From assembly GCA_021788365.1 (NCBI GenBank), contig JAJYKS010000004.1, positions 28,284 to 92,283 of the forward strand: 64,000 nt of DNA, in the 5' to 3' direction. This document shows, one piece after another, positions 9,042 to 35,211 of this stretch (position 1 is the first letter of the stretch; the number at the start of each line of letters is the position of its first letter). This DNA is from a bacterium. GTDB taxonomy: Bacteria > Patescibacteriota > Microgenomatia > UBA1400 > UBA12108. The position numbers and the translations under genes were made by a program. The notes beneath the pieces were generated by a model. That model was not told the origin of the DNA, searched no databases, and worked only from the letters and a program-made list of their open reading frames with translations.

Positions 9042-9089
9042 GGCGGAGAGACCTGAAACTCTCAAATAAGTAAACCGAAGTAGGGTGAG

Positions 9090-9139
9090 AAGGTCTGACT
9101 TGTATGGAAGTGCCCAACCCGAAGGGCAGGTCAGACCTT
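9090..9139. repeat. palindromic repeat element / bidirectional terminator-like nested hairpin between convergent genes
   Basis: AAGGTCTGAC-ttgtatggaagtGCCCaacccgaaGGGCag-GTCAGACCTT: outer 10-bp arms and an inner 4-bp stem. Related copies are at 6622-6634, 49372-49448 and 52817-52857. Confidence 0.6.
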
Positions 9140-9154
9140 ATTGGTTCTATGTAA

Positions 9155-11703: not shown

Positions 11704-13063
11704 GTAGAAAAGCGCCTGCTACCATAATCGCAAACCCTATGGCACCAGTCAATACAGTGGGTTCGACAATCCCCGTGACCGGCACCCCGCTGCCCGTTGC
11801 GGGCATCGCGACGCGACCTCCGGCAGTTGACTCGACAATGGGGCTACCCACGGGAGTAGGAGACGGATAAATGGCCGTTGTACTCGCCGACGGGGTCGAT
11901 ACAAATGCTGGGTCACCCGCCGCCGCCTCGACTTTCGACACGGTAAATGTCCGTTCCAAAGTCTGAGCAACTCCCTGTGCGTCAATATAATTGATGGTAA
12001 CCGTATGCGAGCCAGGCGCAAGATTTGCCGGTGGTGTCCACGTCCACGTACCGTTATTCGCGACAGTAACAGTGCCACTATATGGCGTCACCGAGTGTAC
12101 CGTAATAGAAAGTACCGCAGCCGAAGGGCCAGTACCGCGGAACTCCGGTTGGGTCGTTGCAATGGTTTCCCCATCGCTCGCCGGGTTAGAAAGGGTGACA
12201 CTCCCGGCACTCGGAGGTGTGGACCCCAAAGGTTGTACGTTAAATATCCCAGGTACTTGCCCAGAACTCGTCGAAGCAGGCGTAGCAGACGGAGTTGCCG
12301 GCTCCACAACAGCTACATTGGGAATAGCAGCGGCCGCGCGAAAATCGGGATTCTGCCCCATGGTGATGACGGGGACTGGCGTCGAGTTGGCAAGCGAAAC
12401 AGTAGCGGTAGACGTTTGACTACCAGTCTCGACGGTGACAGTAGCAATGGTAGCAGAAGGATCAAACGCCACGTAAGAAGAAAGATCAGTCGTACGAATA
12501 GTTGAGAGTGGTATGGTATATGAACCAGGTGCGTGAACGAGTACTGAAGCAACTTGCGCGTTGGGGAGAGCAAGATAAACGAGCGCGTCTCCAACGCTCC
12601 CTCCGCCAGGGTTCTGGACAGTCCCGTAAAAACTTTTTGCCAAAGGAGTAGTGGTAATAGTGGGACCGGTTGTAACGGTATAGGGAGAGCCGTTATTGTC
12701 GTACGTTGCAGAATTAGACGTAATACGAAAAGCATATTGAGTACTCGGCTGCAAACCAGTCACGGTTACTTGATGAGTGGTATATGAGTCTGGAGCGGTA
12801 GCCGAATCGCGCTCGTCGGCAACTTTTGTAGACAACGCATCTCCTACTTTACCCCACACCACGCTACCGGTCGCCTTTCCAGACGTTATCCACGACACAG
12901 AAAATTTATTATCTGCAGTATTACTTATTCGTACTTTCTGTGGAATAAATTCTGGGTTCACGGCAGACCGCTCTGAACGCAAAAACCACACCCCTCCGGC
13001 AATGCCCGCAAAGAGAAGCACCAACCCCAGCAAAGTAGGAAACCGTTGGGTGAGCAGGTTCAT
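11693..13063 (-). CDS. cell-surface protein with an FN3-like N-terminal domain, Ser/Thr-rich repeats, an Ig-like domain and a C-terminal MPATG plus hydrophobic tail
   Basis: 456 aa with an N-terminal signal anchor. 'KFSVSWITSGKATGSVVWGK...YTTHQVTVTGLQPSTQYAFRITS' is FN3-like. 'GTVTVANNGTWTWTPPANLAPGSHTVTINYIDAQG' is bacterial Ig-like. The C-terminus is '...AMPATGSGVPVTGIVEPTVLTGAIGFAIMVAGAFLLAL'. Confidence 0.45.
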   Translation of the reverse strand: MNLLTQRFPTLLGLVLLFAGIAGGVWFLRSERSAVNPEFIPQKVRISNTADNKFSVSWITSGKATGSVVWGKVGDALSTKVADERDSATAPDSYTTHQVTVTGLQPSTQYAFRITSNSATYDNNGSPYTVTTGPTITTTPLAKSFYGTVQNPGGGSVGDALVYLALPNAQVASVLVHAPGSYTIPLSTIRTTDLSSYVAFDPSATIATVTVETGSQTSTATVSLANSTPVPVITMGQNPDFRAAAAIPNVAVVEPATPSATPASTSSGQVPGIFNVQPLGSTPPSAGSVTLSNPASDGETIATTQPEFRGTGPSAAVLSITVHSVTPYSGTVTVANNGTWTWTPPANLAPGSHTVTINYIDAQGVAQTLERTFTVSKVEAAAGDPAFVSTPSASTTAIYPSPTPVGSPIVESTAGGRVAMPATGSGVPVTGIVEPTVLTGAIGFAIMVAGAFLLAL

Positions 13064-18692: not shown

Positions 18693-19193
18693 ATGAACAA
18701 AAATATAGTTATGGTGGTTATTGGTATTCTCGCACTTGCAGTCGTTGTCGAGACGGGCTATATCGTCAAAACCAAACTAGGGAGTGACGAACGCGCCGAG
18801 TCGGCCGCCGCTACGCGCGAGCTAGCTGCAAGTCCTCGTGTTGCAGGCACGCATACGGCGCCGCCCCAACTCATGAAAGGCGACAAGCTCGCCGACAGCC
18901 CGCTCGCCAAATCCGCATACGAGGTATATCCCACCATGGATACCTCAGATGCAGCCAAAGCGGCACTCGTCAGCTGGACGGTCACCACCGCCAAAAACGC
19001 GGATGGCACAACCTCGGTCACGTTAACATCAAAAAATCCCGCCGATCCGGCAAGCACCTACAAAGTGAAAACGGGAGAGAAACTCTATTTTGTGGAGATG
19101 AGCGCCGGCGACGATCACGCCGATTCAGACACAGACCTCAACCTCCGCGATGACTTCGGTATAGTAGTTGATGCTTCCGGCATAGTGCAATAA
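18693..19193 (+). CDS. hypothetical membrane-anchored protein
   Basis: 166 aa with an N-terminal TM ('IVMVVIGILALAVVVETGYIV') and a soluble Ala/Thr/Asp-rich domain. It is preceded by a purine-rich, weakly SD-like stretch (aagttggagggtttt) 4 nt upstream of the ATG. Confidence 0.4.
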   Translation: MNKNIVMVVIGILALAVVVETGYIVKTKLGSDERAESAAATRELAASPRVAGTHTAPPQLMKGDKLADSPLAKSAYEVYPTMDTSDAAKAALVSWTVTTAKNADGTTSVTLTSKNPADPASTYKVKTGEKLYFVEMSAGDDHADSDTDLNLRDDFGIVVDASGIVQ

Positions 19194-19208: not shown

Positions 19209-19235
19209 CTAGCACTCTAGCTAATATAGTGCTAA
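19209..19235 (+). promoter_or_regulatory. CIRCE operator (HrcA binding site) overlapping the hrcA promoter
   Basis: cTAGCACTC-tagctaata-TAGTGCTAA against the consensus TTAGCACTC-N9-GAGTGCTAA: 8/9 in each half with an exact 9-nt spacer. It overlaps a TTGACA (19199-19204), 17-nt spacer, TAATAT (19222-19227) promoter. Confidence 0.7.
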
Positions 19236-20601: not shown

Positions 20602-22515
20602 ATGTCTAAAACCATCGGAATAGATTTGGGTACCACCAACTCGTGTGTTGCGGTCATGGAGGGCGGCAAGCCCAAAGTGATCCCGAGCGCCGAAGGATCA
20701 AACACCATTCCCAGTATTGTGGAACCCGTAAAGAACTTGGTTGGCCAAGTGGCCAAAAACCAAATGGTCCTAAATGCCAAGAACACCATCTACAGCGTAA
20801 AACGCTTGATGGGCCGCAAGATGAGCGACAAAATGGTGCAGGAAACCGTCAAAAAAGTACCGTACGAGGTGGTCGCCGGTTCTGCCGACATGGCCGCGGT
20901 GAAAGTAAACGGCAAAGTCTACACCCCACAAGAAATCTCCGCGAAGATCTTACAGAAATGCAAAGCCGACGCCGAGGCTTACCTTGGCGAGACGGTCACG
21001 GAGGCAGTCATCACCGTCCCCGCCTACTTCGACGACTCCCAGCGCCAGGCTACCAAACAGGCCGGTGAAATTGCCGGTCTCACGGTCAAGCGCATAGTAA
21101 ACGAGCCCACAGCCGCAGCATTAGCTTACGGCCTGGACAAAAAGAAATCCGGCAAGATTGCGGTCTATGACCTCGGCGGCGGCACGTTCGACATCTCGGT
21201 ATTGGAGATTGGCGACGGCGTCTTTGAGGTCAAAGCCACGAATGGCGATACATTCCTGGGTGGCGACGACTTCAACAACAAGATCATGGATTACATAGTC
21301 GCAGAATTTAAGAAAGATCAGGGCGTCGACCTATCGGGCGACAAGCAGGCGCTGCAACGTATTCGCGACGCCGCCGAGAAAGCCAAGATAGAGCTGTCGA
21401 GCAGCCAGTCTGCCGAGATCAACCAGCCATTTATTACCCAGGGCAAAGACGGTCCCCTCCACCTCACCATGACCTTGACTCGCGCCAAACTAGAGGAGCT
21501 CACGGACGACCTTATTCAAAGATCGATCGAGCCGGTCAAGAAATGCTTGGCAGATGCGAAGCTAAAACCCTCCGACATCGACGAAGTCGTGCTTGTGGGT
21601 GGCCAGACCCGCATGCCCAAAGTGCAACAAGTCGTGAAAGACTTCTTCGGCCGCGAGCCACACAAAGGCGTGAATCCTGACGAGGTAGTAGCGGTGGGCG
21701 CCGCAATTCAGGCCGGCATCTTGGGCGGCGAAGTCAACGACATCTTGCTCCTGGACGTGACGCCCCTTACGCTCGGCATCGAGACGATGGGTGCAGTGAT
21801 GACGCCTCTGATAGATCGCAACACCACCGTACCTACGAGCAAGAGCCAGGTGTTCTCGACAGCCGCAGACAACCAGCCACAGGTCGAGGTAAACGTACTC
21901 CAGGGCGAGCGCCCCATGGCAACGGACAATAAGAGCTTGGGCCGCTTTGTCCTCGATGGTATCGCCCCCGCGCCTCGCGGCGTGCCGCAGATCGAGGTCA
22001 CCTTTGACATCGATAGTAACGGTATCCTCCATGTTAGTGCCAAAGACAAGGGCACCGGCAAAGAGCAGAAGATCACCATAAAAAATGCTACGAACTTGTC
22101 GGACGAAGAAATCCAAAAGATGAAATCCGAGGCCGAGAAGCACGCCGAGGAAGACAAGGCCAAGAAGGCACTCGTAGAAAAGAAAAACGAAGCCGACAGC
22201 CTCATTTTCCAAACGGAAAAAACATTGAAGGACGCCGGTGACAAGATAACCGCCGATGAGAAAAAGGATATCGACGAAGCCGTAAAGGCGCTAAAAGAAG
22301 CGAAGGATAAAAGTGACGCCACGGTCGAGTCTATCGACGAAGCGTTCAAGAAAGCCTCTGACGCTCTATCGAAATACGGTGAGCGCCTATACAAGGCGAG
22401 TTCTAACGAGCCGCAGTCATCCGAAGCTTCAGCGCAGGATGGTAAAGCCGAGCCGCCCAAGGGCGACCAACCGGAAGAGGGTCAGGTCGTCGACGACCCC
22501 GGTGACAAGAAATAA
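20602..22515 (+). CDS. dnaK: molecular chaperone DnaK (Hsp70)
   Basis: '[14 protein letters not shown]', 'DLGGGTFD' and '[10 protein letters not shown]' are unmistakable Hsp70 signatures. An SD (aaggagg) precedes the start and a terminator hairpin follows the stop. Confidence 0.95.
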
Positions 22516-22528
22516 AGTTTAGTTGATA

Positions 22529-22553
22529 AAAGCCCCCGCAAGGGGGCTTTTGC
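22529..22553 (+). terminator. rho-independent terminator after dnaK
   Basis: AGCCCCCgcaaGGGGGCT hairpin followed by TTTTGC, 14 nt after the dnaK stop. Confidence 0.7.
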
Positions 22554-22562
22554 TTAATTAAT

Positions 22563-23132
22563 ATGAGCGCAGAATCAATAAATCTAAAAGATTGGATCGA
22601 AGAACTCGTTCACATTCAAAACGATGTCTATTTCCTATCGATAAATAATAAAGATTTTATTACCCTTTCAGAGGAATTTAATAGCAAAAGGCTGAATCCA
22701 TTTGTATGGGAATTTATAAAACGTAATTACGTGACTTCAATGTCAGTGGCTATTAGGAGATTAATGGACAATCGTAAAGATTGCCACAGCCTGCTAAAAC
22801 TACTATCAAACATAGAAAGACGTTCATCGGACATAAATACAAAATGGTTTCTCGAACAATGGCCTGGCGGATCAGTGGAAACAAAGTTTAAAGAGTTTTT
22901 CGGTAATAATAATCACGTAAAAAAGCAAGTCATACAAAATCATATTGAAGAGTTAAAACGAGTTACAAGGGCAATTTGTGAGAGAACCAACATTTATGAA
23001 GCGCACAATGCAAAGAAAAAGGATCTAAAAATAATACCCACATACAGAGATGTTGATGTCGCAGTTGACACAATCAAAGTAGTATATGCCAAATACTGGT
23101 ATCTTCTGAAACAAGGGGATCTTTCGATTTAA
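22563..23132 (+). CDS. hypothetical protein in a strongly AT-rich island segment
   Basis: 189 aa, Lys/Asn/Ile-rich. The DNA is visibly AT-richer than the flanks. No recognisable catalytic motif. Confidence 0.4.
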   Translation: MSAESINLKDWIEELVHIQNDVYFLSINNKDFITLSEEFNSKRLNPFVWEFIKRNYVTSMSVAIRRLMDNRKDCHSLLKLLSNIERRSSDINTKWFLEQWPGGSVETKFKEFFGNNNHVKKQVIQNHIEELKRVTRAICERTNIYEAHNAKKKDLKIIPTYRDVDVAVDTIKVVYAKYWYLLKQGDLSI

Positions 23133-23269
23133 ACTGGACTGATTCTCATTACCTTTGTCTTGCAGGACTGCCACCTCATCCATAAACTTTTCGCCAAATA
23201 GTCTGATAGTTCGAATCATTAAACTTACGAAGTTACCACTATTGGCATAACATAGGTTAGAATAATACT

Positions 23270-23560
23270 ATGAGTATGGAAGATTTTTTCGCAAGACTTA
23301 AGGAAAACGAAGAGCCGACGAAGGAAATTGAAGTTCCATCAAGAAAGGGTGTCCCTACCAATACGCTATTAGACGCATCGGACGAAAGCTCTTCACAGAC
23401 AGCAGATATCGCTGAGGGTCTACGCTGGGGACATACTGAAGGAAATATGCACTCAGGTGGAGCGCTCATGCAACTAGTTAATTTTTGCGCACACGCCATA
23501 GGACTAGGAACAAGAGGAAAGCGCTCACACAACAATCGGGACGATTTTACGATTAGCTAA
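23270..23560 (+). CDS. hypothetical small acidic protein
   Basis: 96 aa. The + frame translates to a charged, protein-like sequence. The overlapping minus-strand ORF (23257..23535) is Cys/Ser-rich and less plausible. Confidence 0.3.
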   Translation: MSMEDFFARLKENEEPTKEIEVPSRKGVPTNTLLDASDESSSQTADIAEGLRWGHTEGNMHSGGALMQLVNFCAHAIGLGTRGKRSHNNRDDFTIS

Positions 23561-23654
23561 CTTGAATGGAATCGTGTGTTAATGTGTCAGCAATTCATTC
23601 TCTCCACGGCGGTGGTCACCAAAGTAAGCTTGACCCATCTGGGATAATAACTCC

Positions 23655-24041
23655 ATGTGTCCAGAACATGCAGGTGTTGTCATAATCGACGACGAAACCG
23701 AAAATCTAGCTGATATCAGCCAGTGTCTACAACAAGAAGGTCATCAAGTTATTGGAGAATATCAAAGTTTCGTTGCAGTAAAAGAGGCTCTTGAAAATAA
23801 GACCTTCCCCTTTGGTCTGGTCCAAGTGATTATCGCCGACGCCGCGGCGGGAAGAAATCCCCTAGGCGCACCTGCAATTCGTGAAATTAGGGCCGCAGCA
23901 GATGAGCTTGGCATTAAAATGGCTTACGTTATTGGCAATAGCTCGATGTATCCAGTCGAAGGAGCGAACATAAATAATATCGGAAAAGATTTAAGCGCGT
24001 TACCCAAGCTAGTTACCGCCGCACCCGACGTCTTAAAATAA
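23655..24041 (+). CDS. orphan CheY-like receiver (REC) domain protein without an output domain
   Basis: 128 aa. 'VVIIDDETENLADISQCLQQEGHQVIGEYQSFVAVKEAL' has the beta1-alpha1 acidic pocket of REC domains, and 'VQVIIADAAAG' has a candidate phospho-acceptor Asp. Confidence 0.4.
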   Translation: MCPEHAGVVIIDDETENLADISQCLQQEGHQVIGEYQSFVAVKEALENKTFPFGLVQVIIADAAAGRNPLGAPAIREIRAAADELGIKMAYVIGNSSMYPVEGANINNIGKDLSALPKLVTAAPDVLK

Positions 24042-24060
24042 GTCTTGTTACAATACCCTC

Positions 24061-24675
24061 ATGCCAGGAATATTATTTCTCCACGGCGGCGGCCACTCGA
24101 GCCACACCCGCTACACGAAACTCGAAGAGAAATTTAACAAGCTTGGTATTTTCACTCGTGCTTTCGACCATCACGCCACTTCCCTCGCCGGCCGTCTCGC
24201 CGAAGCAGAGACCGAACTCGCGCAACTAAAAAAAGATCACCACCTTACCGACGCGGACGTTTTCATTTGGGGCTCCAGCATGGGCGGGCACGTGGCCTGC
24301 CGGCTCGCGGAGAGTCACCCCACACTCCGCGGTCTCATCCTCCAGTCGGCAGCCGCCTACTCCGAGGCAGCCGAGAATATCCCGTTTGGCCCAGCCTTCA
24401 CCGCCGAGCTGCAGCGGGAGGGGAGCTGGCAAGATAGTCCCGCCTTCGCGGCAATAGATACGTTCGCCGGTCCCGTACTGGTCATGTACGGGGAGGGAGA
24501 CGACGTGATCCCAGTGGGGGTAAAAGACAAATATCGAGCCCGCGCGGGCAAAAATGGGAACTACTTCACCCTCCCCGGTGCCGGCCACTCACTCCTCCGT
24601 CCCGGCACGCCGAGCGCGTTCACGGCCTGGGACACCATACTCTCCCACGCCATCGACTTTGTTAAACAAAATTAG
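24061..24675 (+). CDS. alpha/beta-fold hydrolase
   Basis: 204 aa. The N-terminal oxyanion region 'ILFLHGGGHSS', the nucleophile elbow 'WGSSMGG' (GxSxG), and later Asp/His candidates ('GEGDDVIP', 'GAGHSL') are all present. Confidence 0.55.
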   Translation: MPGILFLHGGGHSSHTRYTKLEEKFNKLGIFTRAFDHHATSLAGRLAEAETELAQLKKDHHLTDADVFIWGSSMGGHVACRLAESHPTLRGLILQSAAAYSEAAENIPFGPAFTAELQREGSWQDSPAFAAIDTFAGPVLVMYGEGDDVIPVGVKDKYRARAGKNGNYFTLPGAGHSLLRPGTPSAFTAWDTILSHAIDFVKQN

Positions 24676-24771
24676 ATTGCATACCAGGTATGTGATCTGG
24701 TGATATTGGGATAATTCAAGAACTACTATTATTCGAATAATAGTAGTTTTAGAAATTGCTAGAATACTCCT

Positions 24772-25242
24772 ATGTACTCGCACGTCCCCAAAGATTACAT
24801 TTGTCCCATCTGTCTAGGAGTAAGCGGCGTGGAGGGCAAAGGCACACTTCTTCTCCAGCAAGACGTCATATATCAGGGCAAAATCGTTACGGCATTTATT
24901 AATTCGTTCTGGATTAAAAATAACCCCGGCCACGTCATTGTGGTACCCAATGAGCATGTAGAAAACGTATATGATCTGTCTCCCGACCTGGCTACCCACA
25001 TTTTTGTAATTGCCCAGAAAATCTCCCTCGCGATGAAGGTGGCATACAAATGCGACGGCATCACGCTCCTCCAAAACAACGAACCAGCGGGTGGCCAACA
25101 CGCCTTCCACTATCATCTCCACATTTTTCCTCGCTACGACGGCGACGAGCTACACAAACATATGGACAACAAACAGCTCGCTGATCCTGCCTCTCGCGCC
25201 ACATACGCTGCAAAAATCCGTCGCTACTTCAACACGAAATAA
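24772..25242 (+). CDS. HIT-family (histidine triad) nucleotide hydrolase/transferase with an N-terminal CxxC
   Basis: 'QHAFHYHLHIFPR' is the HxHxHxx histidine-triad motif. 'CPICLG' at the N-terminus is zinc-binding-like. Confidence 0.7.
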   Translation: MYSHVPKDYICPICLGVSGVEGKGTLLLQQDVIYQGKIVTAFINSFWIKNNPGHVIVVPNEHVENVYDLSPDLATHIFVIAQKISLAMKVAYKCDGITLLQNNEPAGGQHAFHYHLHIFPRYDGDELHKHMDNKQLADPASRATYAAKIRRYFNTK

Positions 25243-25278
25243 TGGCGAGATAGTATCTTATCTTGCTACAATATTCAT

Positions 25279-25839
25279 ATGCAACATCCTCGTCTGTTTC
25301 TCATTCACGGTTGGGGTGGCAGTCCCCAAAAGGATTGGATGCCGTGGGCAAAGAAAGCATGGGAAGAAAAAGGGTTCGACGTCTACCTTCCCCCAATGCC
25401 GGACACTGACATGCCCAAAATAGACGCATGGGTTGGCTATCTTACTACGCTCGTAGGAGAACTGCGGCCCAGCGACGTATTTGTCGGCCACAGTATTGGT
25501 TGCCAAACCATCCTTCGCTATCTCGAAAAACAGCAAGGGAAGGTGGACAAGGTTGTGCTTGTTGCGCCGTGGTTCACGCTCACCAATCTCGAAAACGCTG
25601 CAGCATGGACGATCGCCGATCCATGGTTAAAGTCTACAATGAACTTCGCACAAATTATCCCAAAAGCCAATACATTCGTAACAATTTTTTCCGATAATGA
25701 TCCTTGGGTGCCGTACGGCGAAAACAAAACACTTTTTGAGCAAAAGTTGCATCCCAAAATAGTGACGCTTCACGCCAAAGGTCACATGACGGATGAAGAA
25801 GGTGTGTCAGAGCTTCCCGAGCTTCTACTCGAGTTATAA
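25279..25839 (+). CDS. alpha/beta hydrolase, YdeN/RBBP9-like serine hydrolase family
   Basis: 186 aa. 'LFLIHGWGGSPQKDWMPW' and the nucleophile elbow 'VGHSIGC' match the short RBBP9/YdeN-type serine hydrolases. Confidence 0.5.
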   Translation: MQHPRLFLIHGWGGSPQKDWMPWAKKAWEEKGFDVYLPPMPDTDMPKIDAWVGYLTTLVGELRPSDVFVGHSIGCQTILRYLEKQQGKVDKVVLVAPWFTLTNLENAAAWTIADPWLKSTMNFAQIIPKANTFVTIFSDNDPWVPYGENKTLFEQKLHPKIVTLHAKGHMTDEEGVSELPELLLEL

Positions 25840-25846
25840 TACGTGC

Positions 25847-26521
25847 ATGCAACTATCGGAGGCACAAGAATTAGTCAAACAGGGCGAAGCACGGCGGGAA
25901 GCAGCAGATTTCGAGGGTGCGATTAAATTCCTCACCGAAGCTATAAAGCTGCTCACAAAAGAGAAATCGTACGCCGACCTGGTCGTCGCCTACAAAGATC
26001 TCTCCCTCACCTACGTCCACAAATATAACTATGGTGAGGGTAGTAGCAACTTAGACAAGGCCAAACAATACGCCGAGGGAATGCTCACAGTTGCCAGGAA
26101 ACACGCTCCAGATTCTATCGCCCTTGCCTACTTCACACTCGCCAAAGCTGTAGAGCTACAAGGCGATCTTACCGCAGCCCGCACAGCATATAAACAAGCG
26201 TTGGAGTTATATAAGGGCTCGCTCGCCGAGCGTGGTGACTATCGCTATCACTACGGCGAGGCGCTCTACATAACCGGCGATAAGAGCGAGGGGAAGCGGC
26301 AAATGGAGACGGGGCTCGCCGAGATTCGCGATGGGGTCGGGGAGGTGGACGACTTCCTCACCGCCGTGTGGGAAACACGCTGTCTCATACGACTGGCATA
26401 CGTTCTAAATAGTGATGACCCGGCTGCAGCCACTAAATATCGGGGAGAAGCAAAAAACCATCTCGAGGCAGACCTCCGCCTCGTCATCCTAAAAAAACAA
26501 TTCCTCGAGCTCTTTTTTTAG
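25847..26521 (+). CDS. tetratricopeptide-repeat (TPR)-like protein
   Basis: Repeated 34-aa helical pairs, for example 'AIKFLTEAIKLL', 'LAYFTLAKAVELQGDLTAARTAYKQALELY' and 'HYGEALYITGD'. The start is moved to the internal Met after the overlap with the preceding gene. Confidence 0.45.
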   Translation: MQLSEAQELVKQGEARREAADFEGAIKFLTEAIKLLTKEKSYADLVVAYKDLSLTYVHKYNYGEGSSNLDKAKQYAEGMLTVARKHAPDSIALAYFTLAKAVELQGDLTAARTAYKQALELYKGSLAERGDYRYHYGEALYITGDKSEGKRQMETGLAEIRDGVGEVDDFLTAVWETRCLIRLAYVLNSDDPAAATKYRGEAKNHLEADLRLVILKKQFLELFF

Positions 26522-26649
26522 CATAACCCATAGGCAGATCTAATCACCAAAAAGACGCTAACCAGCACAAAACCGTAGCTGCGGAATCCTCACAGATATA
26601 TGCTTGCAGGCTTTCCCACACCCAAATAATAGTCCATAATCAATACATC

Positions 26650-29600
26650 ATGGTAATGGAAAATACTAAGGTAGAAATACTTGACAAGGGAGAGCCGGGC
26701 GGGCTCGTACCTAATAGATATCGTAGAATCTTACACAAGCAAATGCGCATAAGTCCCCGCTTAAGAAGTGCTCTTGCTGCGAGAGATGATTTATCAAATG
26801 ATGATGCCAATCAGACAGTTATAGCCAAAGCCCCACCACGAAGGGAAATAGAGCAACCGGTGGCGCAGGAAAAAGTTGATTTTGTCGCTTACACGGAGGC
26901 TGCTCTTAATAAAGGAAACGTCCCCGCAGAAATACTAGCTCACATGCGTGCGGATAAAGCGGTAATTTTTGAGACAGCAAACACTCGAGAAATAGGTATA
27001 GGCGGAGGATTTGATGCAGTCGACCAAATGGTTATAGCAGACTATACACAACACGCAGCACGCGGACCATATGAAGTAGCACAAGGAATGATAGATAATG
27101 GATTTCTTGAATCTAAAAGCCCAGGATGGAAACGTCCATCAATTGAAATAGACAAACAAGACTCACAAGAGACCTTTACCGGCGAACAAACATTTGATGG
27201 TGCCAAGGCCATTGTTGGTCGGAACATGGGGGTCCTCCGCAAGAACTCACTAACGGTACTCCGAAGAGATACAGAGCTATATGCCAGAAAGGCCAATGGT
27301 CGCCCCAAAATGGGAGGATTCGGCCAAGGATTAAAAATCCACTTATGTACGGCAGTCTCTACGCCACAAGACCGTCGCAATGTGGTGAAAGTGTTTTTAC
27401 GTGAAGCAAAGTGGAACGCATGGCAACGTGAAGATCTCGAAAGATATGTTGCGTCCCCAGCGCCATCGCCAGAACATGCCTCATTTGCCTATGTGCAGGC
27501 AAGAGACCCAGACACAAATACGTATTATCGCGCCTACGCGTATCGCGAACCTACCATGGCAAATGGTGTAGAAATCTGGAACTTAAAATACGTTTTTGTC
27601 GATATCGATGAAAATAATTTGCCCGAAGAAGATAAAGATATGGTTGTGTGTGCTCACGTTAATCCCGACACCGAACAAATAAGTGCGTGGAACGATGCTC
27701 CTTGGAACATATTACAAATGAACCCGTATTATCCCTCAGAAGAAAGTTTGGTGCGTACAGATAATGACGCGCGTCCAACAGCCGCTATCAGCCGATACTA
27801 TGCAGCAGAGCTCGCAGAATTACCCGAAGCTCACGATTCCACATGGGATGTCGAAGAAATAGATTGGCCAGAGGGGGTAGTAATACCGCGGCGAATCTTC
27901 CCGGGGATTCATGTCGAGGGGCTAAGACTAAGGGTAAAAAATGACAACTGGGACGGATCGGCAATAAGAACTTGGAATATCAACCCACGCGGAGACACAA
28001 CACTTCTTAAGAGAATTCATCGTGAAAGTGACTCTGTGCACGTAGATGGAGATACAAAGCCTATTTTCAGCGCCTGTGTTATGAGTCGGAAGGATCTTAA
28101 CCAATGGAAAGACTTAATGGAGCGTGTGCTAAACGCTCAAAGTGAAACCCGCGTCTCACAACTCCTCGAAGTACAAGCATTGCGTGATTATTACCTTCTA
28201 TCCTCAACGGCTCGGCAAGCGTTGATAGACGCATTTCATGAAGTGGCACCACAAGCAGAACAAAGTTTTTATTCCGACACTACACTCCTTGCAGTTTGGA
28301 GGGCAAAAACTGGTAAAGACAAAGTGGCACCTGCCAGAGTCGACCCAGCACTATCGAGTACTCTACGCAAAGCAGAGCTAACTGATTGTGATTCGATCGC
28401 ACGAGCCTGCCTAACGGAAGGTACAGGACTATCAAATTGGCACGAATCACGCATAGAAGTACACGACATTTCAACAACCGCAGACAATGTAAAAAGGAAT
28501 AATAAATCGCCAGGAAAACAGATTGTAGAAAATATCCTGGGAGAAAGAGGTGAGAGACTATTCCCTGGCGTTACCACATACGCCCGAATCAACGCCGACA
28601 CGATAGAAATTGCTATTAGCGGTTTAGTCGACAGTCGAAACAGGCCATACACCACGTTCTTAGAACCAGAAAAAGAGGGAAATACCGAGTATGTGATTAA
28701 AAAAGACGCTTCAGAGCTGTTATCGTCTCTCGGAAAAGGAGGAGTTAATACAAACATATTCTTCCAATCCGACACTCCAAATTTTGGTGTTGGGGTGAAA
28801 TGCCTAACTGTTAAAAGAGTTGGCGCCAAAACCTTTGGAGTAATAGGAGAATCCAATCAAAGCCTAGGGCAGGTGGTTCCCACAAGGGGGATTGTTATCC
28901 AATTCAAGGGTACGTCAGCCGCGATCGATGGACTCACTAAAGACTTGGATGGTTACTTTACCAAACTTAACCCAATGGTTATTAAACACACAGATGCAGC
29001 GCTAAAAATCGTTGACGAACAACTTCGATACCTAAAAGAACAGTGTGAGAGCACCAAAAATGAATTGGAAACAATTCGGCGTAATGCCCTAGGGAACCTA
29101 GCAGATGGTCAAACTCTTCGCCCCTCCGTACGAGCTCGCCATGCTGGGCGCCAAGGCGTGGGTGGTGGAGCACGCGGAGAATATTCCATAGAAGTTGCCG
29201 ATACTAATCGTTCTATCTGGCTTCCGGGCGCTAGCGAGGAAACCATTATTTATACCCCTCACGATGCAACATCCTGGATAGAGGGATCGGAGACGCGAGA
29301 CCACGCCCCTCGCATTCACTTTAGAGTGACAGAGGTCGGTGGCGACAGTGGACATAAACTTCCAAATAACATCTCTATTTCCACCAGTAGTAATATCAAT
29401 TTCGACGAATGGGGTAATGCCACGGGCAAAAGAGAAGAATCGCTTTTTCGTTTTGTAGGAGAAGTGAATGGAGAATCGGTCTGGAGAACAAGCGGGGCAA
29501 GAGCAGATTATTTTAGGAACAGAACAGACGCGTTTGGCGCTCTCTATACCTCTGTTATTACGTTTGAAGAGCCATTAGAAATTGCCAATGGAGACGCACG

Positions 29601-31017
29601 CATACTTCCAATACCAGAAAACTGGGAAGTTACAATGATCCAACTACCAGAAGCAACCACGGAAATAGCAAAACTACGCGATGGACAGCTAACAGTACCA
29701 TTACTTTTTCGCGATATGGTAAGCGGCCATACGGTCTTACAACGACGGAGTGAACTTGGGAAAACAGTTATTTCCACGTTGCCCGCTGGAACCAGAATAT
29801 ACATACGACCAATGGCAACCAAGGTCCGCAATCAAGACAAGAATTTTCTAGAACAAAACTTTCCGTTATATCTAGAAAAGTGTAAAGAACCAATAGCCAA
29901 TTTCGATAAACTCGATCACGAAGCTCGACAGCTCATAACAATTATTAACGAATTGGGATACATGACAAACGAGCAGCGGGCAGAGGCGATAGATGAGTTT
30001 TGGCGTCGGCGGCGTCTTTACGATGACACTGTCAGGATGACCTCAATCGAGGAAATTATCCGAACGGGAAAAGGTACATGCAGTGCCGCTGCGATGGGAG
30101 AATTAGCCCTCATGCGCGAAGCCGGGATCCCCTGTCGCATCAAGCAAAATTACTCCTATAAAACCAAGGGGGCACTCTCACCACCCTACCACGTGACAAT
30201 AGAAATAATGGGCAGCGAAGGAAACTGGATTGAGATAGACCCACCCAATGGTAAAATGTCTCGATATTTTGCATCTCTTGTGGCCGAAAACGCGTGTAAC
30301 GACCGCCTACCCGCGATCCATGGCGTTCGTTCATTGGCTATGTCACAAACAGAACAAATATCCCATACGGGTGTTCCAGAGATAGTCAAGCAATTTATCG
30401 CCCATACAACCCAAGTGGAAGAGGGGGTAAAAATATCAGACACATTAAGGAGTATCTTTACCGCCGTTAGGGAGGGTAGTGAGAAGAGTATGACAAACGT
30501 GGGACCGCAACTAGTTACAGAGCTTTCAAAGCTGATTATTGAATCAAATAAAAATCTAAAGCATTTATCTCAGCCCAGCGACATCCCGCCAGAAGATCTC
30601 GCTTTACTCGGAAAAAATATTGCAACGGAATTACACGAATACATGCGGCTCACGGCATATGCATTACCAGAGGTTCCTCGGGATATTCAGCTTGCAGCTG
30701 GTGCGCGATGGTTTGCTGGCCGCTTAGCCACGCTCCTAATAGGCGAAAAAGCAGATATATATCGCGATCGACTCCCTCAAGTAGGAGCTATCAACAGACC
30801 AAAAAAGACGTTCAATGCCATGAAACAATTACTCACTCGGTATAGCTTCGAGGAAGTCTTGGCGGTTATACATTCAGCAATAAAACACCCAAGTTCGATA
30901 GAAATAATAACTGAAGTATTGCAAAACGAGTCTAGAATACACCAGGCGGAGCGAACCTCATCGGCCATGCGTGTCACACGCGCACTTATTGACGTAGATG
31001 TTGATGATCAATCATAA
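26650..31017 (+). CDS. giant (1455 aa) hypothetical protein with a C-terminal-quarter transglutaminase-like cysteine-protease core
   Basis: No signal peptide or TM was seen. At about nt 30065-30250, 'GKGTCSAAAMGELALMREAGIPCRI...PPYHVTIEIM...WIEIDPPNG' gives Cys-x36-His-x16-Asp, the spacing and context of the transglutaminase-like superfamily catalytic triad. The remainder matches nothing I recognise. Confidence 0.6.
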   Translation: MVMENTKVEILDKGEPGGLVPNRYRRILHKQMRISPRLRSALAARDDLSNDDANQTVIAKAPPRREIEQPVAQEKVDFVAYTEAALNKGNVPAEILAHMRADKAVIFETANTREIGIGGGFDAVDQMVIADYTQHAARGPYEVAQGMIDNGFLESKSPGWKRPSIEIDKQDSQETFTGEQTFDGAKAIVGRNMGVLRKNSLTVLRRDTELYARKANGRPKMGGFGQGLKIHLCTAVSTPQDRRNVVKVFLREAKWNAWQREDLERYVASPAPSPEHASFAYVQARDPDTNTYYRAYAYREPTMANGVEIWNLKYVFVDIDENNLPEEDKDMVVCAHVNPDTEQISAWNDAPWNILQMNPYYPSEESLVRTDNDARPTAAISRYYAAELAELPEAHDSTWDVEEIDWPEGVVIPRRIFPGIHVEGLRLRVKNDNWDGSAIRTWNINPRGDTTLLKRIHRESDSVHVDGDTKPIFSACVMSRKDLNQWKDLMERVLNAQSETRVSQLLEVQALRDYYLLSSTARQALIDAFHEVAPQAEQSFYSDTTLLAVWRAKTGKDKVAPARVDPALSSTLRKAELTDCDSIARACLTEGTGLSNWHESRIEVHDISTTADNVKRNNKSPGKQIVENILGERGERLFPGVTTYARINADTIEIAISGLVDSRNRPYTTFLEPEKEGNTEYVIKKDASELLSSLGKGGVNTNIFFQSDTPNFGVGVKCLTVKRVGAKTFGVIGESNQSLGQVVPTRGIVIQFKGTSAAIDGLTKDLDGYFTKLNPMVIKHTDAALKIVDEQLRYLKEQCESTKNELETIRRNALGNLADGQTLRPSVRARHAGRQGVGGGARGEYSIEVADTNRSIWLPGASEETIIYTPHDATSWIEGSETRDHAPRIHFRVTEVGGDSGHKLPNNISISTSSNINFDEWGNATGKREESLFRFVGEVNGESVWRTSGARADYFRNRTDAFGALYTSVITFEEPLEIANGDARILPIPENWEVTMIQLPEATTEIAKLRDGQLTVPLLFRDMVSGHTVLQRRSELGKTVISTLPAGTRIYIRPMATKVRNQDKNFLEQNFPLYLEKCKEPIANFDKLDHEARQLITIINELGYMTNEQRAEAIDEFWRRRRLYDDTVRMTSIEEIIRTGKGTCSAAAMGELALMREAGIPCRIKQNYSYKTKGALSPPYHVTIEIMGSEGNWIEIDPPNGKMSRYFASLVAENACNDRLPAIHGVRSLAMSQTEQISHTGVPEIVKQFIAHTTQVEEGVKISDTLRSIFTAVREGSEKSMTNVGPQLVTELSKLIIESNKNLKHLSQPSDIPPEDLALLGKNIATELHEYMRLTAYALPEVPRDIQLAAGARWFAGRLATLLIGEKADIYRDRLPQVGAINRPKKTFNAMKQLLTRYSFEEVLAVIHSAIKHPSSIEIITEVLQNESRIHQAERTSSAMRVTRALIDVDVDDQS

Positions 31018-31034
31018 TCGCCCTTAGGAGGACT

Positions 31035-31868
31035 ATGGTATTGCCGACAGAATCGCTGATCACTGAAGGATCAATTCGTGCGCTTATAAATGACGCGAAC
31101 CCTCTAAAATCCAAGGACTATCAATATCTTTACTTGCCAGAACATGCGGCGGAGTTGGAAAAAATATTCCACAGATCTGCCAATGCGTTTGGAGCGTTCA
31201 ATTCAATCTTACCTTTTGTTTCAATAGACGCCGTCACAAAAGGACTAATGCAATTGCGGGTTGCAAATGAAAATGCCCAAGAGCTAACACGACAAACGAG
31301 CGTAGCTTTAATAGATTTATCACCCCACAACAATATACCAAGCATTTTTTTGACACTTCGTGGGTTTAGAGCAGCCGTACAATTACCAGATAACCGCGTG
31401 CGTACGTATTCCAAAGATGCTACCCACACTCTTTCAATCCAACGGGCAGGTGCAACCATTATCAATGAGCAAGAGAGGCCAGACCTATGGGATGAAAGAA
31501 CAAAATACGACAATTCATTGGTTGTTGTCGTAGACGATGGTGCTGTATTTCCGATGCTAACTCAACCAGACGCGCCAAACAACCCCACCGGTATAACTTT
31601 CCAGTACGGTGTCGACTGGTCAGGATCGAATACTCAAGAAGACACACCACCAACAAGTGGGTTCGTTGAGCTGCCACTGATTACTACAGTACCATTATTG
31701 TCCCAGTTCACACAACGCACAATTAACCATCCCGGAGCATCTATGTTCTCTGGAAGAATGGCAGTGCTGACACGATATCCAACATATGCAATCTCATGCG
31801 AAAAAAGCACAACACTGCAAAAACCTCGGGGAGGAGCTGGAACTGGAAGTGTTGTCCCAGCTCGATAA
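31035..31868 (+). CDS. hypothetical protein, probably co-transcribed partner of the giant protein
   Basis: 277 aa. It starts 18 nt after the giant ORF stop. No TM or signal. No recognisable motif. Confidence 0.4.
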   Translation: MVLPTESLITEGSIRALINDANPLKSKDYQYLYLPEHAAELEKIFHRSANAFGAFNSILPFVSIDAVTKGLMQLRVANENAQELTRQTSVALIDLSPHNNIPSIFLTLRGFRAAVQLPDNRVRTYSKDATHTLSIQRAGATIINEQERPDLWDERTKYDNSLVVVVDDGAVFPMLTQPDAPNNPTGITFQYGVDWSGSNTQEDTPPTSGFVELPLITTVPLLSQFTQRTINHPGASMFSGRMAVLTRYPTYAISCEKSTTLQKPRGGAGTGSVVPAR

Positions 31869-31895
31869 TTAGCACTCACTCTTGTGTAGTGCTTA
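31869..31895 (+). promoter_or_regulatory. CIRCE-like operator upstream of the dnaJ-like gene
   Basis: TTAGCACTC-actcttgtg-TAGTGCTTA: the left half is 9/9, the spacer is 9 nt, and the right half is 7/9. A TATAAT is at 31905-31910. Confidence 0.55.
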
Positions 31896-31917
31896 GTCTC
31901 TCATTATAATCACCAAT

Positions 31918-32790
31918 ATGGCTACAAAGCGCGACTACTACGAGATACTGGGGGTAAAACGGGAGGCAAGTGAGGCGGAGATCAAATCTGCCTACCGCAA
32001 ACTTGCCTTAAAGTGGCACCCCGATCGCAACAAAGAAGCGGGTGCCGAGGCCAAGTTCAAAGAAATCAACGAGGCCTACGAGGTGCTGGGGAATAAAGAT
32101 AAGCGCGGGAAGTACGACCAATTTGGTCACGCAGCGTTTGACCCTTCCGCCGGCTTCGGTGGCGGCGCGGCCGGTGGCTCGTATCGCTCCGGTCCCTTCA
32201 CCTACACCTATACAACAGGCGGTGGCTTCGAAGACTTGTTCGGCAGCCAGGGCGGTTTTGGCGATCCGTTTGACGTATTCGAGAGTTTCTTCGGCGGCCG
32301 CAGCCCCTTCGGTGGCTCCTATCAGGCCAAGCCTCACTACTCAATAACCATATCGTTTATGGACGCCGTAAAAGGTATAGAAAAGTCCTTTGTCCATCAG
32401 GGAAAAAGTTATACGATCAAGATCCCCGCCGGCGCAGACGATGGTACACGTATCCGCTACAGCGAGTTCGACGTCTCAGTTGCCGTATCCCCCGACAAAG
32501 TTTTCCGTCGCGAGGGAGCTGACGTATTTATCTATCACGAAATTCCGGTGACGCTCGCCATGCTTGGGGGCGACACTACCATCCCGACGTTAGACGGCGA
32601 TCTCAAGATCAAGATCCGTCCTGGCACCCAGCCTTCTACTACTATTCGACTCTCTGGAAAGGGAATAAAGCGGTTGCAAGGGAGCGGTCGTGGCGACTTC
32701 TACATCAAGCTCAAAGTGATGTTACCAGAGAAATTATCTCGCCGCGCCAAAGGACTGGTGGAAGACCTGTCGCGTGAACTCGCGAACTAA
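31918..32790 (+). CDS. dnaJ: DnaJ-class J-domain co-chaperone lacking the zinc-finger domain (CbpA/type II-like)
   Basis: '[33 protein letters not shown]' is a J domain with HPD. A Gly/Phe-rich linker follows. No CxxCxGxG repeats are present. C-terminal substrate-binding domains are present. A CIRCE-like operator lies upstream. Confidence 0.75.
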
Positions 32791-32868
32791 AGATCGATTT
32801 GCTCACATTTTCCGAATGTGTTACAACAAATACAGTTATCTGTTACTGCGGGAACCGCAAGGAGTGGT

Positions 32869-33708
32869 ATGAAGAAAAGTATAGTCGTTGTTGGACTAGC
32901 GCTGGTACTATTTGGGGTAGTGGCTACAGTACAAAGCGTAAAAGCTGATTGGCAGATAGATAGTCATGGCAACTTGGTCGAGATGAAAAATGTTTTAGGT
33001 GACACAGCTGGCGGTCAAGGCGACCAGCAGACACCAGAGCCCACGCAGACTGCAGAACCAAAAGATACTCCAGAGCCCACAGACACACCAGAAGCACAGC
33101 AAATGCAGGAGAAAAACCAAGAACAGAATCAGGTACAGAGTAAATATGAAGTTGAGAACAAAGACGGCAAGCTCGTGGTAAAAACGCACACTGTGGATAA
33201 AAGTGGCAAAGAAGTACAGACAGAAACACAGTTTAAGGCAGGTGAAGCACTACAGGTAGAGGCGCAAACCAATGCCGGCAACCACTTTGCCATAAATACC
33301 GAAGATAACTCTGGTCTCACCGTGACAAACGGCGGCAAGACCGCCCAGTCCACGCTCCCCTTATCGGTAAATGCACAAAACCAACTGGTGGTGACAACAG
33401 CTGCCGGACAAAAAGTAGTGACAGTGCTACCTGACCAAGCGGTAAAGAACCTCCTCTCGTCAGGCGTACTATCGAGTATTACCGAATCGCCGGTGGCGTC
33501 GGCACCAGGCTCCACAAGCTCGGTAGGCCAGCTCTCGGCAGTTGGTAGCACGCCGACCTACACAATTTCAGGGACGAAACAGGTTCGTTTCCTCGGCTTG
33601 TTCCCGGTAACGCTAAACAGGCAGGTGCAGGTTTCGGCGGAGAATGGTACGGTGGTGAATACCGCCCAGTCCGCGATAGCCAACTTCGTAAGCCTCTTCT
33701 CGTTCTAA
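32869..33708 (+). CDS. hypothetical secreted protein
   Basis: The signal peptide 'MKKSIVVVGLALVLFGVVATVQSVKA' is followed by a Gln/Thr/Glu-rich low-complexity region and a beta-rich domain. Confidence 0.4.
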   Translation: MKKSIVVVGLALVLFGVVATVQSVKADWQIDSHGNLVEMKNVLGDTAGGQGDQQTPEPTQTAEPKDTPEPTDTPEAQQMQEKNQEQNQVQSKYEVENKDGKLVVKTHTVDKSGKEVQTETQFKAGEALQVEAQTNAGNHFAINTEDNSGLTVTNGGKTAQSTLPLSVNAQNQLVVTTAAGQKVVTVLPDQAVKNLLSSGVLSSITESPVASAPGSTSSVGQLSAVGSTPTYTISGTKQVRFLGLFPVTLNRQVQVSAENGTVVNTAQSAIANFVSLFSF

Positions 33709-34282: not shown

Positions 34283-34573
34283 ATGTTTAAAGATGTTCAC
34301 ATAAATCAACATTTCCGCTCCGCGCTTGCCGTTCGGGTATCCGCTGCCGCTCGTCCTCGCTGGTTTATCAGGCCGTTGGTCATAGCTCCAACTGCGTTTG
34401 CCTTTTCGCTTCTCGCCTTTGTGGTAGTAAAAAATAGTTCAGTGCCGGCGCATGTCGCGACAACCGTAGATAACGCTGAAATTTCTTGGAACATAGATCA
34501 TGGTGGCAACAACCTCGACGATCCCACGACCCTCGCCGAAGAACAACAACTCTTAAGTATGGTGCAAAATTAG
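34283..34573 (+). CDS. putative membrane-anchored anti-sigma factor
   Basis: 96 aa, immediately downstream of the ECF sigma. It has a single TM ('LVIAPTAFAFSLLAFVVV'). The call is by position and topology only. Confidence 0.3.
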   Translation: MFKDVHINQHFRSALAVRVSAAARPRWFIRPLVIAPTAFAFSLLAFVVVKNSSVPAHVATTVDNAEISWNIDHGGNNLDDPTTLAEEQQLLSMVQN

Positions 34574-34599
34574 TAATAAATAATAGAAGAAAGGAATCT

Positions 34600-35211
34600 A
34601 TGAAAAAGATACTTATCCCAGCCCTGACAACCGTTATGCTCCTCTCGCCCGTCGTCCCGGTATTTGCGATAGACGGTTCTCCCTCTCCGTCAACCGCGCC
34701 CCGAGCGCAGTTTCGACAGTACGTACAGCAGGCAAATCAAACATTCAAGACGGATGTAGAGCAAGCCCGCGAGGAGCGCAAAACCAATATTACAGAGGCG
34801 CGGCTCGGGATGATCGAGGGAATAGCCAAGAAGCACGCCTCCCGACTCCAAAATCAGTTTGCCGTGCACGCCCGCTGGCTGGGGAGCATCGCCACCCGCT
34901 TGCAGGCACGTATAAACACCGTAAAAGGCGAGGGGGTAGACGTAACCGCCATGCAAAACGAGCTAAATGCCGCCGAGGCAGCGATTACAACAGCGACTAC
35001 CGATGGCACGAATGCAGTAAATGCATTTAACGGCATTACCGGGACGACACTCGAAGAAGTCCGCGCTGCCGTGCAAAACGCGATTACGCTCGCACAGCAA
35101 ACCCGAGCTGCATTTAACAATGCTAAACAGCTCCTCGTACAAACGTTCCAGATGGTGCGATCCGCCACTCCTCGCCCCTCCGAAAGTCCAGAGGCAAGTC
35201 CCAGCGTCTAA
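34600..35211 (+). CDS. hypothetical secreted Ala/Gln-rich coiled-coil protein
   Basis: The signal peptide 'MKKILIPALTTVMLLSPVVPVFA' is followed by a helical low-complexity region. The start is taken at the internal Met with the signal peptide. Confidence 0.4.
   Translation: MKKILIPALTTVMLLSPVVPVFAIDGSPSPSTAPRAQFRQYVQQANQTFKTDVEQAREERKTNITEARLGMIEGIAKKHASRLQNQFAVHARWLGSIATRLQARINTVKGEGVDVTAMQNELNAAEAAITTATTDGTNAVNAFNGITGTTLEEVRAAVQNAITLAQQTRAAFNNAKQLLVQTFQMVRSATPRPSESPEASPSV

Follow-up and report, generated by a model that had tools for sequence, protein, structure and literature searches.

A probable layered variable region between dnaK and dnaJ in the heat-shock locus of a Microgenomates bacterium

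Heat-shock control of the Bacillus type is exerted through the HrcA-CIRCE regulon, in which hrcA, grpE, dnaK and dnaJ form one operon and the operator, CIRCE (controlling inverted repeat of chaperone expression), is the inverted repeat TTAGCACTC-N9-GAGTGCTAA. In a 64-kb stretch of a 123.5-kb metagenome contig (ENA ERZ27233565; JAJYKS010000004.1, positions 28,284 to 92,283; hereafter the window) that belongs to an uncultured, ultra-small Microgenomates bacterium of the candidate phyla radiation (CPR, Patescibacteria), dnaK and dnaJ are separated by nine open reading frames (ORFs), which raises the question of whether a foreign island has landed in the heat-shock locus or whether the boundary between the two genes is itself of an unusual kind. 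The original prediction, made from the sequence by eye, regarded these genes as an old or non-canonical insertion or a lineage-specific accessory module. The accessory and lineage-specific character stood up to analysis; one insertion did not, since all 11 loci of the window's clade are split at this place. We consider it likely, on comparative sequence evidence, that positions 22517-31917 form a layered variable region filling the boundary between two transcription units, and not a single island. Its layers are, from left to right, layer A (an AbiU2-like protein, a 96-aa ORF and a receiver-like protein), layer B (an alpha/beta hydrolase, a HIT protein, a serine hydrolase and a tetratricopeptide (TPR) protein) and layer C (a 1455-aa transglutaminase-like protein and a 277-aa partner). 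As such it is an ordinary variable region with good documentation, not a mobile island.

The gene calls, obtained from the ORF listing and Pfam scanning of the window, place the whole listed locus on the plus strand in the order murJ, lepA, a 166-aa ORF, CIRCE, hrcA, grpE and dnaK, followed by the nine ORFs (22563-31868), a 290-aa J-protein, a 296-aa ORF, an extracytoplasmic function (ECF) sigma factor, a 241-aa ORF and nusA (Table 1). The predicted parting of dnaK and dnaJ by nine genes, with a terminator on one side and a dnaJ operator on the other, was borne out in both coordinates and order. The junctions of the window recur in several independent assemblies, and an assembly chimera was rejected because these junctions are identical there.

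Only two CIRCE-like sites were detected in the 64 kb, one before hrcA and the other before dnaJ, while 0.01 would be expected from shuffled sequences. Elements homologous to the former precede hrcA in nearly all related loci. The latter begins one base past the stop codon of the 277-aa gene, its right arm TAGTGCT is the same as in the organism's own hrcA CIRCE, and it is followed by TATAAT at 31905-31910 and by the dnaJ ATG 7 nt downstream; by these features, 31869-31917 is a predicted HrcA-type operator together with the promoter of dnaJ. The J-protein possesses the HPD motif, the G/F region and DnaJ_C, lacks the zinc finger with its cysteine repeats that would make it a class-A DnaJ, and scores 236 against the TIGR02349 cut-off of 377, being class-B-like as in all Microgenomates relatives. 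The locus resembles the Bacillus-type regulon in that HrcA is encoded in the window, CIRCE overlaps the hrcA promoter, and a second copy overlaps a promoter-like site upstream of dnaJ. It differs in that dnaJ stands apart as a unit of its own, 9.4 kb downstream and equipped with a separate CIRCE, in that the HrcA repressor is short (about 245 aa) and in that the J-protein has no zinc finger; moreover, in Microgenomates the second CIRCE was found only where dnaJ has parted from dnaK. Literature searches at title and abstract level returned nothing on CIRCE in Patescibacteria.

The relation between gene order and this second operator was examined in two samples. The first consisted of DnaK relatives in one-genome-per-species contigs (80 genome loci, mapped by tblastn), which turned out to be Microgenomates (Collierbacteria, Shapirobacteria and Woesebacteria) sharing the backbone murJ-lepA-...-hrcA-grpE-dnaK-dnaJ-...-nusA; in these the distance from dnaK to dnaJ is mostly 2-250 bp, with none of the nine genes of the window in between. 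The second, comprising 80 JGI metagenome loci collected with the J-protein as a query, recovered the window's own clade. After merging, 85 non-redundant Microgenomates loci remained, a split being defined as a gap of at least 650 bp. The order hrcA-grpE-dnaK is kept in about 100 related loci, and the gap is below 650 bp in 65 of the 85 loci, spanning several candidate phyla, in agreement with the prediction that dnaK and dnaJ are normally contiguous. A CIRCE before dnaJ is present in 17 split loci and absent from three, and it is absent from all 65 adjacent ones (Fisher's p = 4e-15, a value not corrected for phylogeny, the cases comprising one large clade and about six scattered lineages). The assumption that the dnaJ CIRCE had been preserved from a contiguous state had to be abandoned on these counts. 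The regulatory wiring follows gene order across these roughly 85 genomes, and it is conceivable that acquiring a dedicated CIRCE is a compensation of a general nature, by which dnaJ is allowed to uncouple from dnaK in these reduced genomes.

The split-type promoters are of a common design, with a -35-like hexamer in the CIRCE loop, TATAAT or TAAAAT about 17 nt further on and a very short leader. Their CIRCE right arms match the variant found before hrcA in the same lineage (TAGTGCT in the window, CTGCT in Collierbacteria), which fits a functional operator. The same design occurs in scattered Collierbacteria-like lineages (L016, L017, L126, L134, L141 and L143). Where dnaK and dnaJ are adjacent, a GC-rich hairpin and then a -10-like hexamer usually occupy the short spacer, so that a boundary made of terminator and promoter is widespread between the two genes.

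Several spacers deserve separate mention. Nine adjacent loci (L005, L008, L018, L021, L028, L039, L041, L044 and L048) have spacers of 50-130 bp in which a GC-rich hairpin comes first and TATAAT or TAAAAT stands a short way ahead of the dnaJ start codon; in L028 and L048 the left arm of the hairpin bears a -35-like TTGACA or TTGATG. Here a single element seems to serve both as terminator and as near-leaderless promoter. Palindromic repeats of the forms GTCATTGCGAG...CTCGCGATGAC and GTCATTCCCGAC...GATCGGGAATC stand before dnaJ in L009, L015/L130, L136, L144 and L145, and L015 carries such a repeat where its close relative L016 has CIRCE. Locus L122, of the window clade, accommodates comEA, comEC and a gene of the metallo-beta-lactamase fold between dnaK and dnaJ (7341-9994), with no CIRCE before dnaJ. 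In three loci of the window clade (L099, L100 and L107) minus-strand genes precede dnaJ, CIRCE is missing and the -10 region (CCTGCTAAAAT) is retained; in L100 the 10 kb upstream of dnaJ contain no dnaK. This arrangement implies that dnaJ can be wholly unlinked from the operon.

Membership of the window clade was taken from a DnaK+DnaJ tree, an HrcA tree and the identities to the window proteins (DnaJ 70-81%, DnaK 78-86%, HrcA 71-76%). All of its 11 non-redundant loci that show both genes are split, with gaps of 1.0-9.4 kb, and CIRCE precedes dnaJ in ten of them, 21-33 nt from the start codon (1 nt in L119). The gap of the window (9.4 kb) is the largest seen, the maximum in other species being 6.3 kb. 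Clustering of the gap ORFs of 28 loci gave more than 40 distinct clusters across 25 clade loci, many of them singletons, and only HIT is common: it was found in 12 loci (among them L105, L108, L110, L112, L115, L122, L123 and L124) at 64-71% identity to the HIT of the window, often adjoining dnaK. NUDIX comes next (8 loci), followed by serine hydrolase, uracil phosphoribosyltransferase and ATP-grasp (4 loci each), and further cargo includes GNAT, C39 peptidase, MerR, HAD, methyltransferase, histidine phosphatase and comEA/comEC; the serine hydrolase also lies upstream of dnaJ in L105. The site is variable among related species, the cargo differing between nearly every species pair, and by its content the gap reads as a general gene-order breakpoint with miscellaneous small genes and not specifically as a defence island. 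From their distribution in the clade, the split and the predicted dnaJ CIRCE predate the window species, as HIT in the gap probably does too. Shared gap contents in relatives, which the original prediction had set against an insertion, were found in part: the split and HIT look ancestral, and the other genes are unshared.

Within the species, the variation is of a different order in each layer. Conspecific contigs from other samples and two metagenome-assembled genomes from NCBI were found by exact-protein look-up, and the identity profile was calculated against one of these loci, L082 (GCA_021839925.1). Nucleotide identity is about 100% over 17.3-22.0 kb, falls to 93-87% in the last 500 bp of dnaK (98.6% identity being kept through dnaK), and no homology is detectable over 22517-24075, the similarity ending at the dnaK stop codon (22516). 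Past this slot the identity is patchy (78-91%, then 99-100%, then 87-92%). The alpha/beta hydrolase gene is 91% identical (proportion of synonymous differences, pS, 0.25), the HIT gene 79% (pS 0.69) and the serine hydrolase and TPR genes 84-90% (TPR 86%); the 1455-aa gene reaches 98.9% (pS 0.027, ratio of nonsynonymous to synonymous differences, pN/pS, 0.21) and the 277-aa gene 99.9%; CIRCE and the 5' end of dnaJ return to 87-92%, and the sequence further downstream is mostly 93-100% identical, with one bin at 81%. Across the three layers pS spans 0.005-0.69. Layer C is near-identical between strains and is under purifying selection.

The slot that follows dnaK (22517 to about 24075) exists in three versions among contigs whose flanks are 96-100% identical. 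The window carries the HEPN-AbiU2 gene, the 96-aa ORF and the REC-like gene, all absent from L082 and L086. In L082, L085 and L087 their place is taken by a 380-aa PIN_8 protein (E 3e-53) and a 91-aa ORF, with an extra HAD-like gene before HIT. L086 has at this place a protein of 157 aa that bears the motif RNELFH, is unmatched in Pfam and looks HEPN-like only by eye, together with a 77-aa membrane peptide and a reverse-strand 124-aa gene, as well as an Rce1/CPBP protease gene 3' of the alpha/beta hydrolase, which itself is present in all three variants. Each of the two variants with a visible dnaK junction has its own terminator. The hairpin of L082 stands at the same place as that of the window and differs from it in sequence, which indicates that the terminator moves with the cassette; the dnaK terminator, once thought to be preserved, is accordingly a different hairpin in a conspecific strain. 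A degenerate 35-nt direct repeat (23585-23619 and 24062-24096, 74% identity) brackets the REC-like gene. Alignment to the beginning of the alpha/beta-hydrolase gene, in the window as in L082, identifies its left copy as a relic of the 5' end of that gene and probably the scar of an earlier junction. Identity that sinks within the final 500 bp of dnaK, from about 100% at first to 87%, and that stays patchy beyond, would fit an exchange of whole cassettes, the conserved flanks serving as anchors for homologous recombination.

Inside a 609-aa ORF of the window (51797-51824) there is a perfect palindrome of 28 nt, CACTTCGATACTACGTAGTATCGAAGTG, which recurs at 8305-8332 of L082; in conspecific strains this sequence makes up the 3' terminus of HIT, which is not so in the HIT gene of the window.

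The base composition is layered as well. At 46.3% GC the region lies below the remainder of the window (51.2%) and is the lowest-GC 9.36-kb stretch in the 64 kb, so that the expectation of AT-richer, mosaic DNA was sound. The flanks, expected at about 55% GC, are close to 51%, and 55% is reached only by dnaK and a few other genes. Compared with the 45 other ORFs of the window (GC content at third codon positions, GC3, mean 0.53, standard deviation 0.07), five genes have GC3 of 0.32-0.39 and four, namely the two hydrolases, HIT and TPR, are native-like at 0.51-0.69 (Table 1). Compositional deviation therefore applies to layers A and C and not to layer B, and the region is a mosaic without the uniformly atypical composition of an integrative island. 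By its low GC3 the large gene offers weak evidence of foreign origin, because its homologue in L092 is likewise AT-shifted relative to its neighbours.

Considering these data together, we suppose that a dnaK terminator followed by an HrcA-controlled dnaJ promoter would create a boundary that tolerates gene gain, loss and swapping. Such a site would be permissive since the intervening DNA breaks nothing, dnaJ being driven from its own promoter. The clade ancestor would already have had the split, the dnaJ CIRCE and probably HIT, with the remaining cargo turning over. Layer A differs completely between strains, starting from the dnaK stop codon; layer B is cargo of native composition that has strongly diverged between strains; for layer C, either a relocation within the neighbourhood of the operon or a renewed acquisition from some related CPR genome would account for its present place. 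The turnover presumably proceeds via homologous recombination between conserved flanks.

Flexible genomic islands of the replacement or additive kind are hypervariable regions between core genes and include hot spots of defence genes. The window region is like them in its fixed site between housekeeping genes, its differing content in conspecific strains, the lack of an integrase and the presence of HEPN and PIN genes in the swapped slot. The decay of flank identity toward the variable segment, suggestive of homologous recombination, may be a further likeness. It is unlike them in its setting, the hrcA-grpE-dnaK-dnaJ heat-shock locus of a reduced CPR genome, and in that only about 1.5 kb is truly strain-variable, the remainder being cargo at the level of the species or clade that includes ordinary small metabolic genes. 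It offers a documented example of a reduced CPR genome that still keeps a site of gene flux, and this inside a textbook conserved operon. Current views are not overturned thereby, and the operator, the gene pair and the predicted toxins provide concrete targets should a relative that can be cultivated or enriched come to hand.

Layer A was described originally as two hypotheticals and an orphan REC domain. The first hypothetical matches HEPN_AbiU2 (PF18734; 30.1 bits, cut-off 26.8) and has the Rx6H motif RTNIYEAH from R141 to H148, being a predicted RNase-type toxin or abortive-infection protein; the second, the 96-aa ORF, indeed gave no match in protein-family scans. The REC assignment found a Response_reg match, which at 21.1 bits lies below the cut-off of 30.2. 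PADLOC recognized no catalogued defence system among the nine genes, save for a weak match of HIT to ThsC. With HEPN AbiU2 and PIN toxins the locus shares the above-threshold HEPN_AbiU2 domain with its Rx6H motif and the PIN_8 protein as an alternative allele; unlike them, it has no recognisable antitoxin (MNT or other) and no PADLOC match for AbiU2. The swapping of predicted HEPN and PIN toxin genes at strain level is of value in that it concerns organisms whose phage defences are poorly known.

In layer C, the 1455-aa protein contains a Transglut_core domain (PF01841; 37.6 bits, cut-off 23) at residues 1103-1198, in which Cys1144, His1181 and Asp1197 are invariant in 12 aligned homologues of about 1200-1800 aa, as are several N-terminal residues. 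Outside the core, that is, in some 1100 N-terminal and 250 C-terminal residues, there is no Pfam or PDB match, and a PDB sequence search gave a marginal match to TgpA confined to the core. Its likeness to the transglutaminase-like cysteine proteases (PF01841; TgpA, PDB 6g49) consists in the core above the cut-off and the invariant Cys-His-Asp; unlike those proteins, the family has large unmatched regions and a downstream partner in nine of ten contexts, is confined to CPR and is extremely rare. A word-indexed search of 5.8 billion proteins with the 1455-aa protein, the 277-aa protein and the family alignment recovered no proteins but those of the species itself, and a JGI metagenome scan with the large-protein alignment gave no match. 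Exhaustive HMMER searching of 1.84 billion representatives produced 14 proteins, two of them full-length at 33% identity and about ten sharing the C-terminal half; the named ones are Woesebacteria and Pacebacteria, and all named or placed members are CPR. Title- and abstract-level literature searches found nothing on this family. A single-sequence AlphaFold model of residues 61-500 had a pLDDT (predicted local distance difference test) of 31 and was left unused. The conserved motif GGFGQGLKI, taken by eye for a mark of a GHKL/MORC-type ATPase, was dropped for want of profile support, and the notion that the 1800-aa homologue P0006 is a fusion with the partner was rejected (hhalign probability 0.1%).

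A co-directional gene of 213-624 aa without a Pfam match stands at most 40 nt downstream of the large gene in nine of the ten family contexts. The 277-aa protein, found in identical form on 12 contigs, is homologous to three of these partners (27-29% identity in L092 and L093, 16% in L095). The analysis brings to notice these large transglutaminase-like proteins as a family that is very rare and restricted to CPR, with a co-directional gene downstream of nearly every member. The two closest homologues, in L092 and L093, belong to the window clade and lie across the operon from the position in the window: L092 has the order lepA-(large gene-partner)-CIRCE-hrcA-grpE-dnaK and L093 the order (large gene-partner)-two genes-CIRCE-hrcA. 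In the HrcA tree L092 is basal, followed by L093 and then the window, from which the position upstream of hrcA would seem the older one, the pair having been moved, or acquired anew, in the lineage of the window. A model of duplication and loss, in which the dnaJ CIRCE arose by copying from that of hrcA and travelled with layer C, was rejected as the sole explanation, because the two promoters differ in architecture and because the dnaJ CIRCE also occurs in clade members without layer C and the same architecture in Collierbacteria-like genomes.

Several considerations weigh against the layered variable region as we have described it. Recombination is deduced from the identity profiles of a few conspecific contigs, and the association of CIRCE with the split is phylogenetically clumped into one large clade and about six scattered lineages. 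No promoter was recognized for the first gene (AbiU2) 3' of the dnaK terminator, and read-through from dnaK is possible. The direction in which layer C moved is read from a neighbour-joining tree of 150 HrcA residues and from three genomes, and the pair is sporadic, occurring in 3 of about 20 clade members at a family identity of 31-33%, so an independent acquisition at the two junctions is possible. For layer A (toxin- or defence-type RNases) as for layer C (an intracellular enzyme of the cysteine-protease or transglutaminase type that would act together with its partner), the proposed functions are predictions from domains.

The position of the pair near the chaperone genes admits a functional interpretation. 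The three closest family members (window, L092 and L093) sit within a few kilobases of hrcA-grpE-dnaK at two junctions of the operon, two of them ending directly against CIRCE, and on these grounds the 1455-aa protein and its partner might be conceived as an undescribed CPR-specific two-component enzyme system tied functionally to the HrcA/DnaK stress locus; we regard this as doubtful. An extension of the heat-shock regulon, with the pair and perhaps the toxins co-regulated with or dependent on chaperones, appears improbable, even though the partner gene ends 0-19 nt before CIRCE in the window and L092 and no promoter could be recognised for the first gene past the dnaK terminator. Six more distant family members (P0005, P0006, P0009, P0010, P0011 and P0012) reside in unrelated neighbourhoods such as glycolysis and pilin genes, the large gene itself is not preceded by CIRCE, and most clade members lack the pair; the linkage in three related genomes may reflect inheritance and not function.

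It seems quite improbable that the whole block is ancestral and vertically inherited, the genomes with adjacent genes having lost it by deletion. The split, CIRCE and HIT are clade-wide, as such a history would have it, and the CIRCE-promoter design shared with Collierbacteria-like lineages could mean an older origin with repeated loss. On the other hand, no window gene but HIT (and the serine hydrolase, in L105 only) is found in the gaps of other species, the cargo varies with species pair and strain, the 65 adjacent loci are spread over several candidate phyla, and layers A and C are atypical in composition.

Searches for signs of mobility confirmed the predicted lack of an integrase, a transposase and flanking repeats. 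Among the nine proteins no integrase, recombinase or transposase was found with Pfam, NCBIfam, PHROGs and PADLOC; 22000-32500 contains no bounding direct repeats; no tRNA or tmRNA was detected in the 64 kb and no Rfam family in the window; scans of viral contigs with the 1455-aa protein and AbiU2 gave no relatives. The region lacks an integrase, an att site or tRNA and a uniformly atypical composition. A single, fairly recent horizontally acquired genomic island, whether an integrative element or its remnant, is consequently hard to hold and scarcely credible: it would account for the lowest-GC stretch of the window, the five genes with atypical GC3, a large gene pair with no homologues beyond a handful of CPR genomes and the absence of all nine genes from L002, the nearest relative in the species-level collection, but not for the missing integrase, transposase, tRNA and bounding repeats, the clade-wide split, dnaJ CIRCE and HIT, the native composition of the middle genes, the very unequal divergence of the three parts between strains, the AT shift of the large gene in L092 or the want of viral relatives.

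Table 1. Coordinates of the genes and regulatory elements of the locus in the window (GC3, GC content at third codon positions)
Feature	Position	Strand	Evidence or remark	GC3
CIRCE before hrcA	19209-19235	+	TTGACA upstream; -10-like TAATAT in loop	
hrcA, 247 aa	19249-19992	+	HrcA C-terminal domain, Pfam 57 bits	
grpE, 172 aa	19995-20513	+	Pfam	
dnaK, 637 aa	20602-22515	+	Pfam	
dnaK terminator hairpin, AAGCCCCC-GCAA-GGGGGCTT then TTTG	~22529-22553	+	sequence inspection	
HEPN_AbiU2 protein, 189 aa, layer A	22563-23132	+	Pfam; GC 34%	0.32
96-aa ORF, layer A	23270-23560	+	strain-specific; no family match	0.39
35-nt hydrolase 5'-end relic	23585-23619	+	degenerate direct repeat of 24062-24096	
Receiver-like (REC) protein, 128 aa, stand-alone, layer A	23655-24041	+	weak Response_reg match	0.38
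Alpha/beta hydrolase, 204 aa, layer B	24061-24675	+	Pfam	0.69
HIT-family hydrolase, layer B	24772-25242	+	Pfam HIT 65.5 bits	0.57
Serine hydrolase (Ser_hydrolase family), 186 aa, layer B	25279-25839	+	Pfam 84 bits	0.51
TPR protein, at most 242 aa, layer B	25793-26521	+	TPR_12 35.5 bits	0.59
Transglutaminase-like protein, 1455 aa, layer C	26650-31017	+	Transglut_core	0.39
277-aa partner, layer C	31035-31868	+	no known family	0.37
Second CIRCE, before dnaJ	31869-31895	+	2 mismatches; -35-like TTGTGT in loop	
dnaJ-like class-B J-protein, 290 aa	31918-32790	+	J domain, DnaJ_C	

The neighbouring junctions lepA-hrcA and dnaJ-nusA also hold lineage-specific ORFs, and their lengths differ among genomes. 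At the former, the 166-aa ORF (18693-19193) is present only in the window species; at the latter, the 296-aa ORF (32818-33708) and the 241-aa ORF (34486-35211) have 26-35% identity in clade relatives. Elsewhere in the window, a further ORF of low GC3 (0.34) is situated at the left end (631-1497), and the interval 9000-12000 displays deviant tetranucleotide usage and contains minus-strand genes, one of them with fn3 and Big_13 domains.

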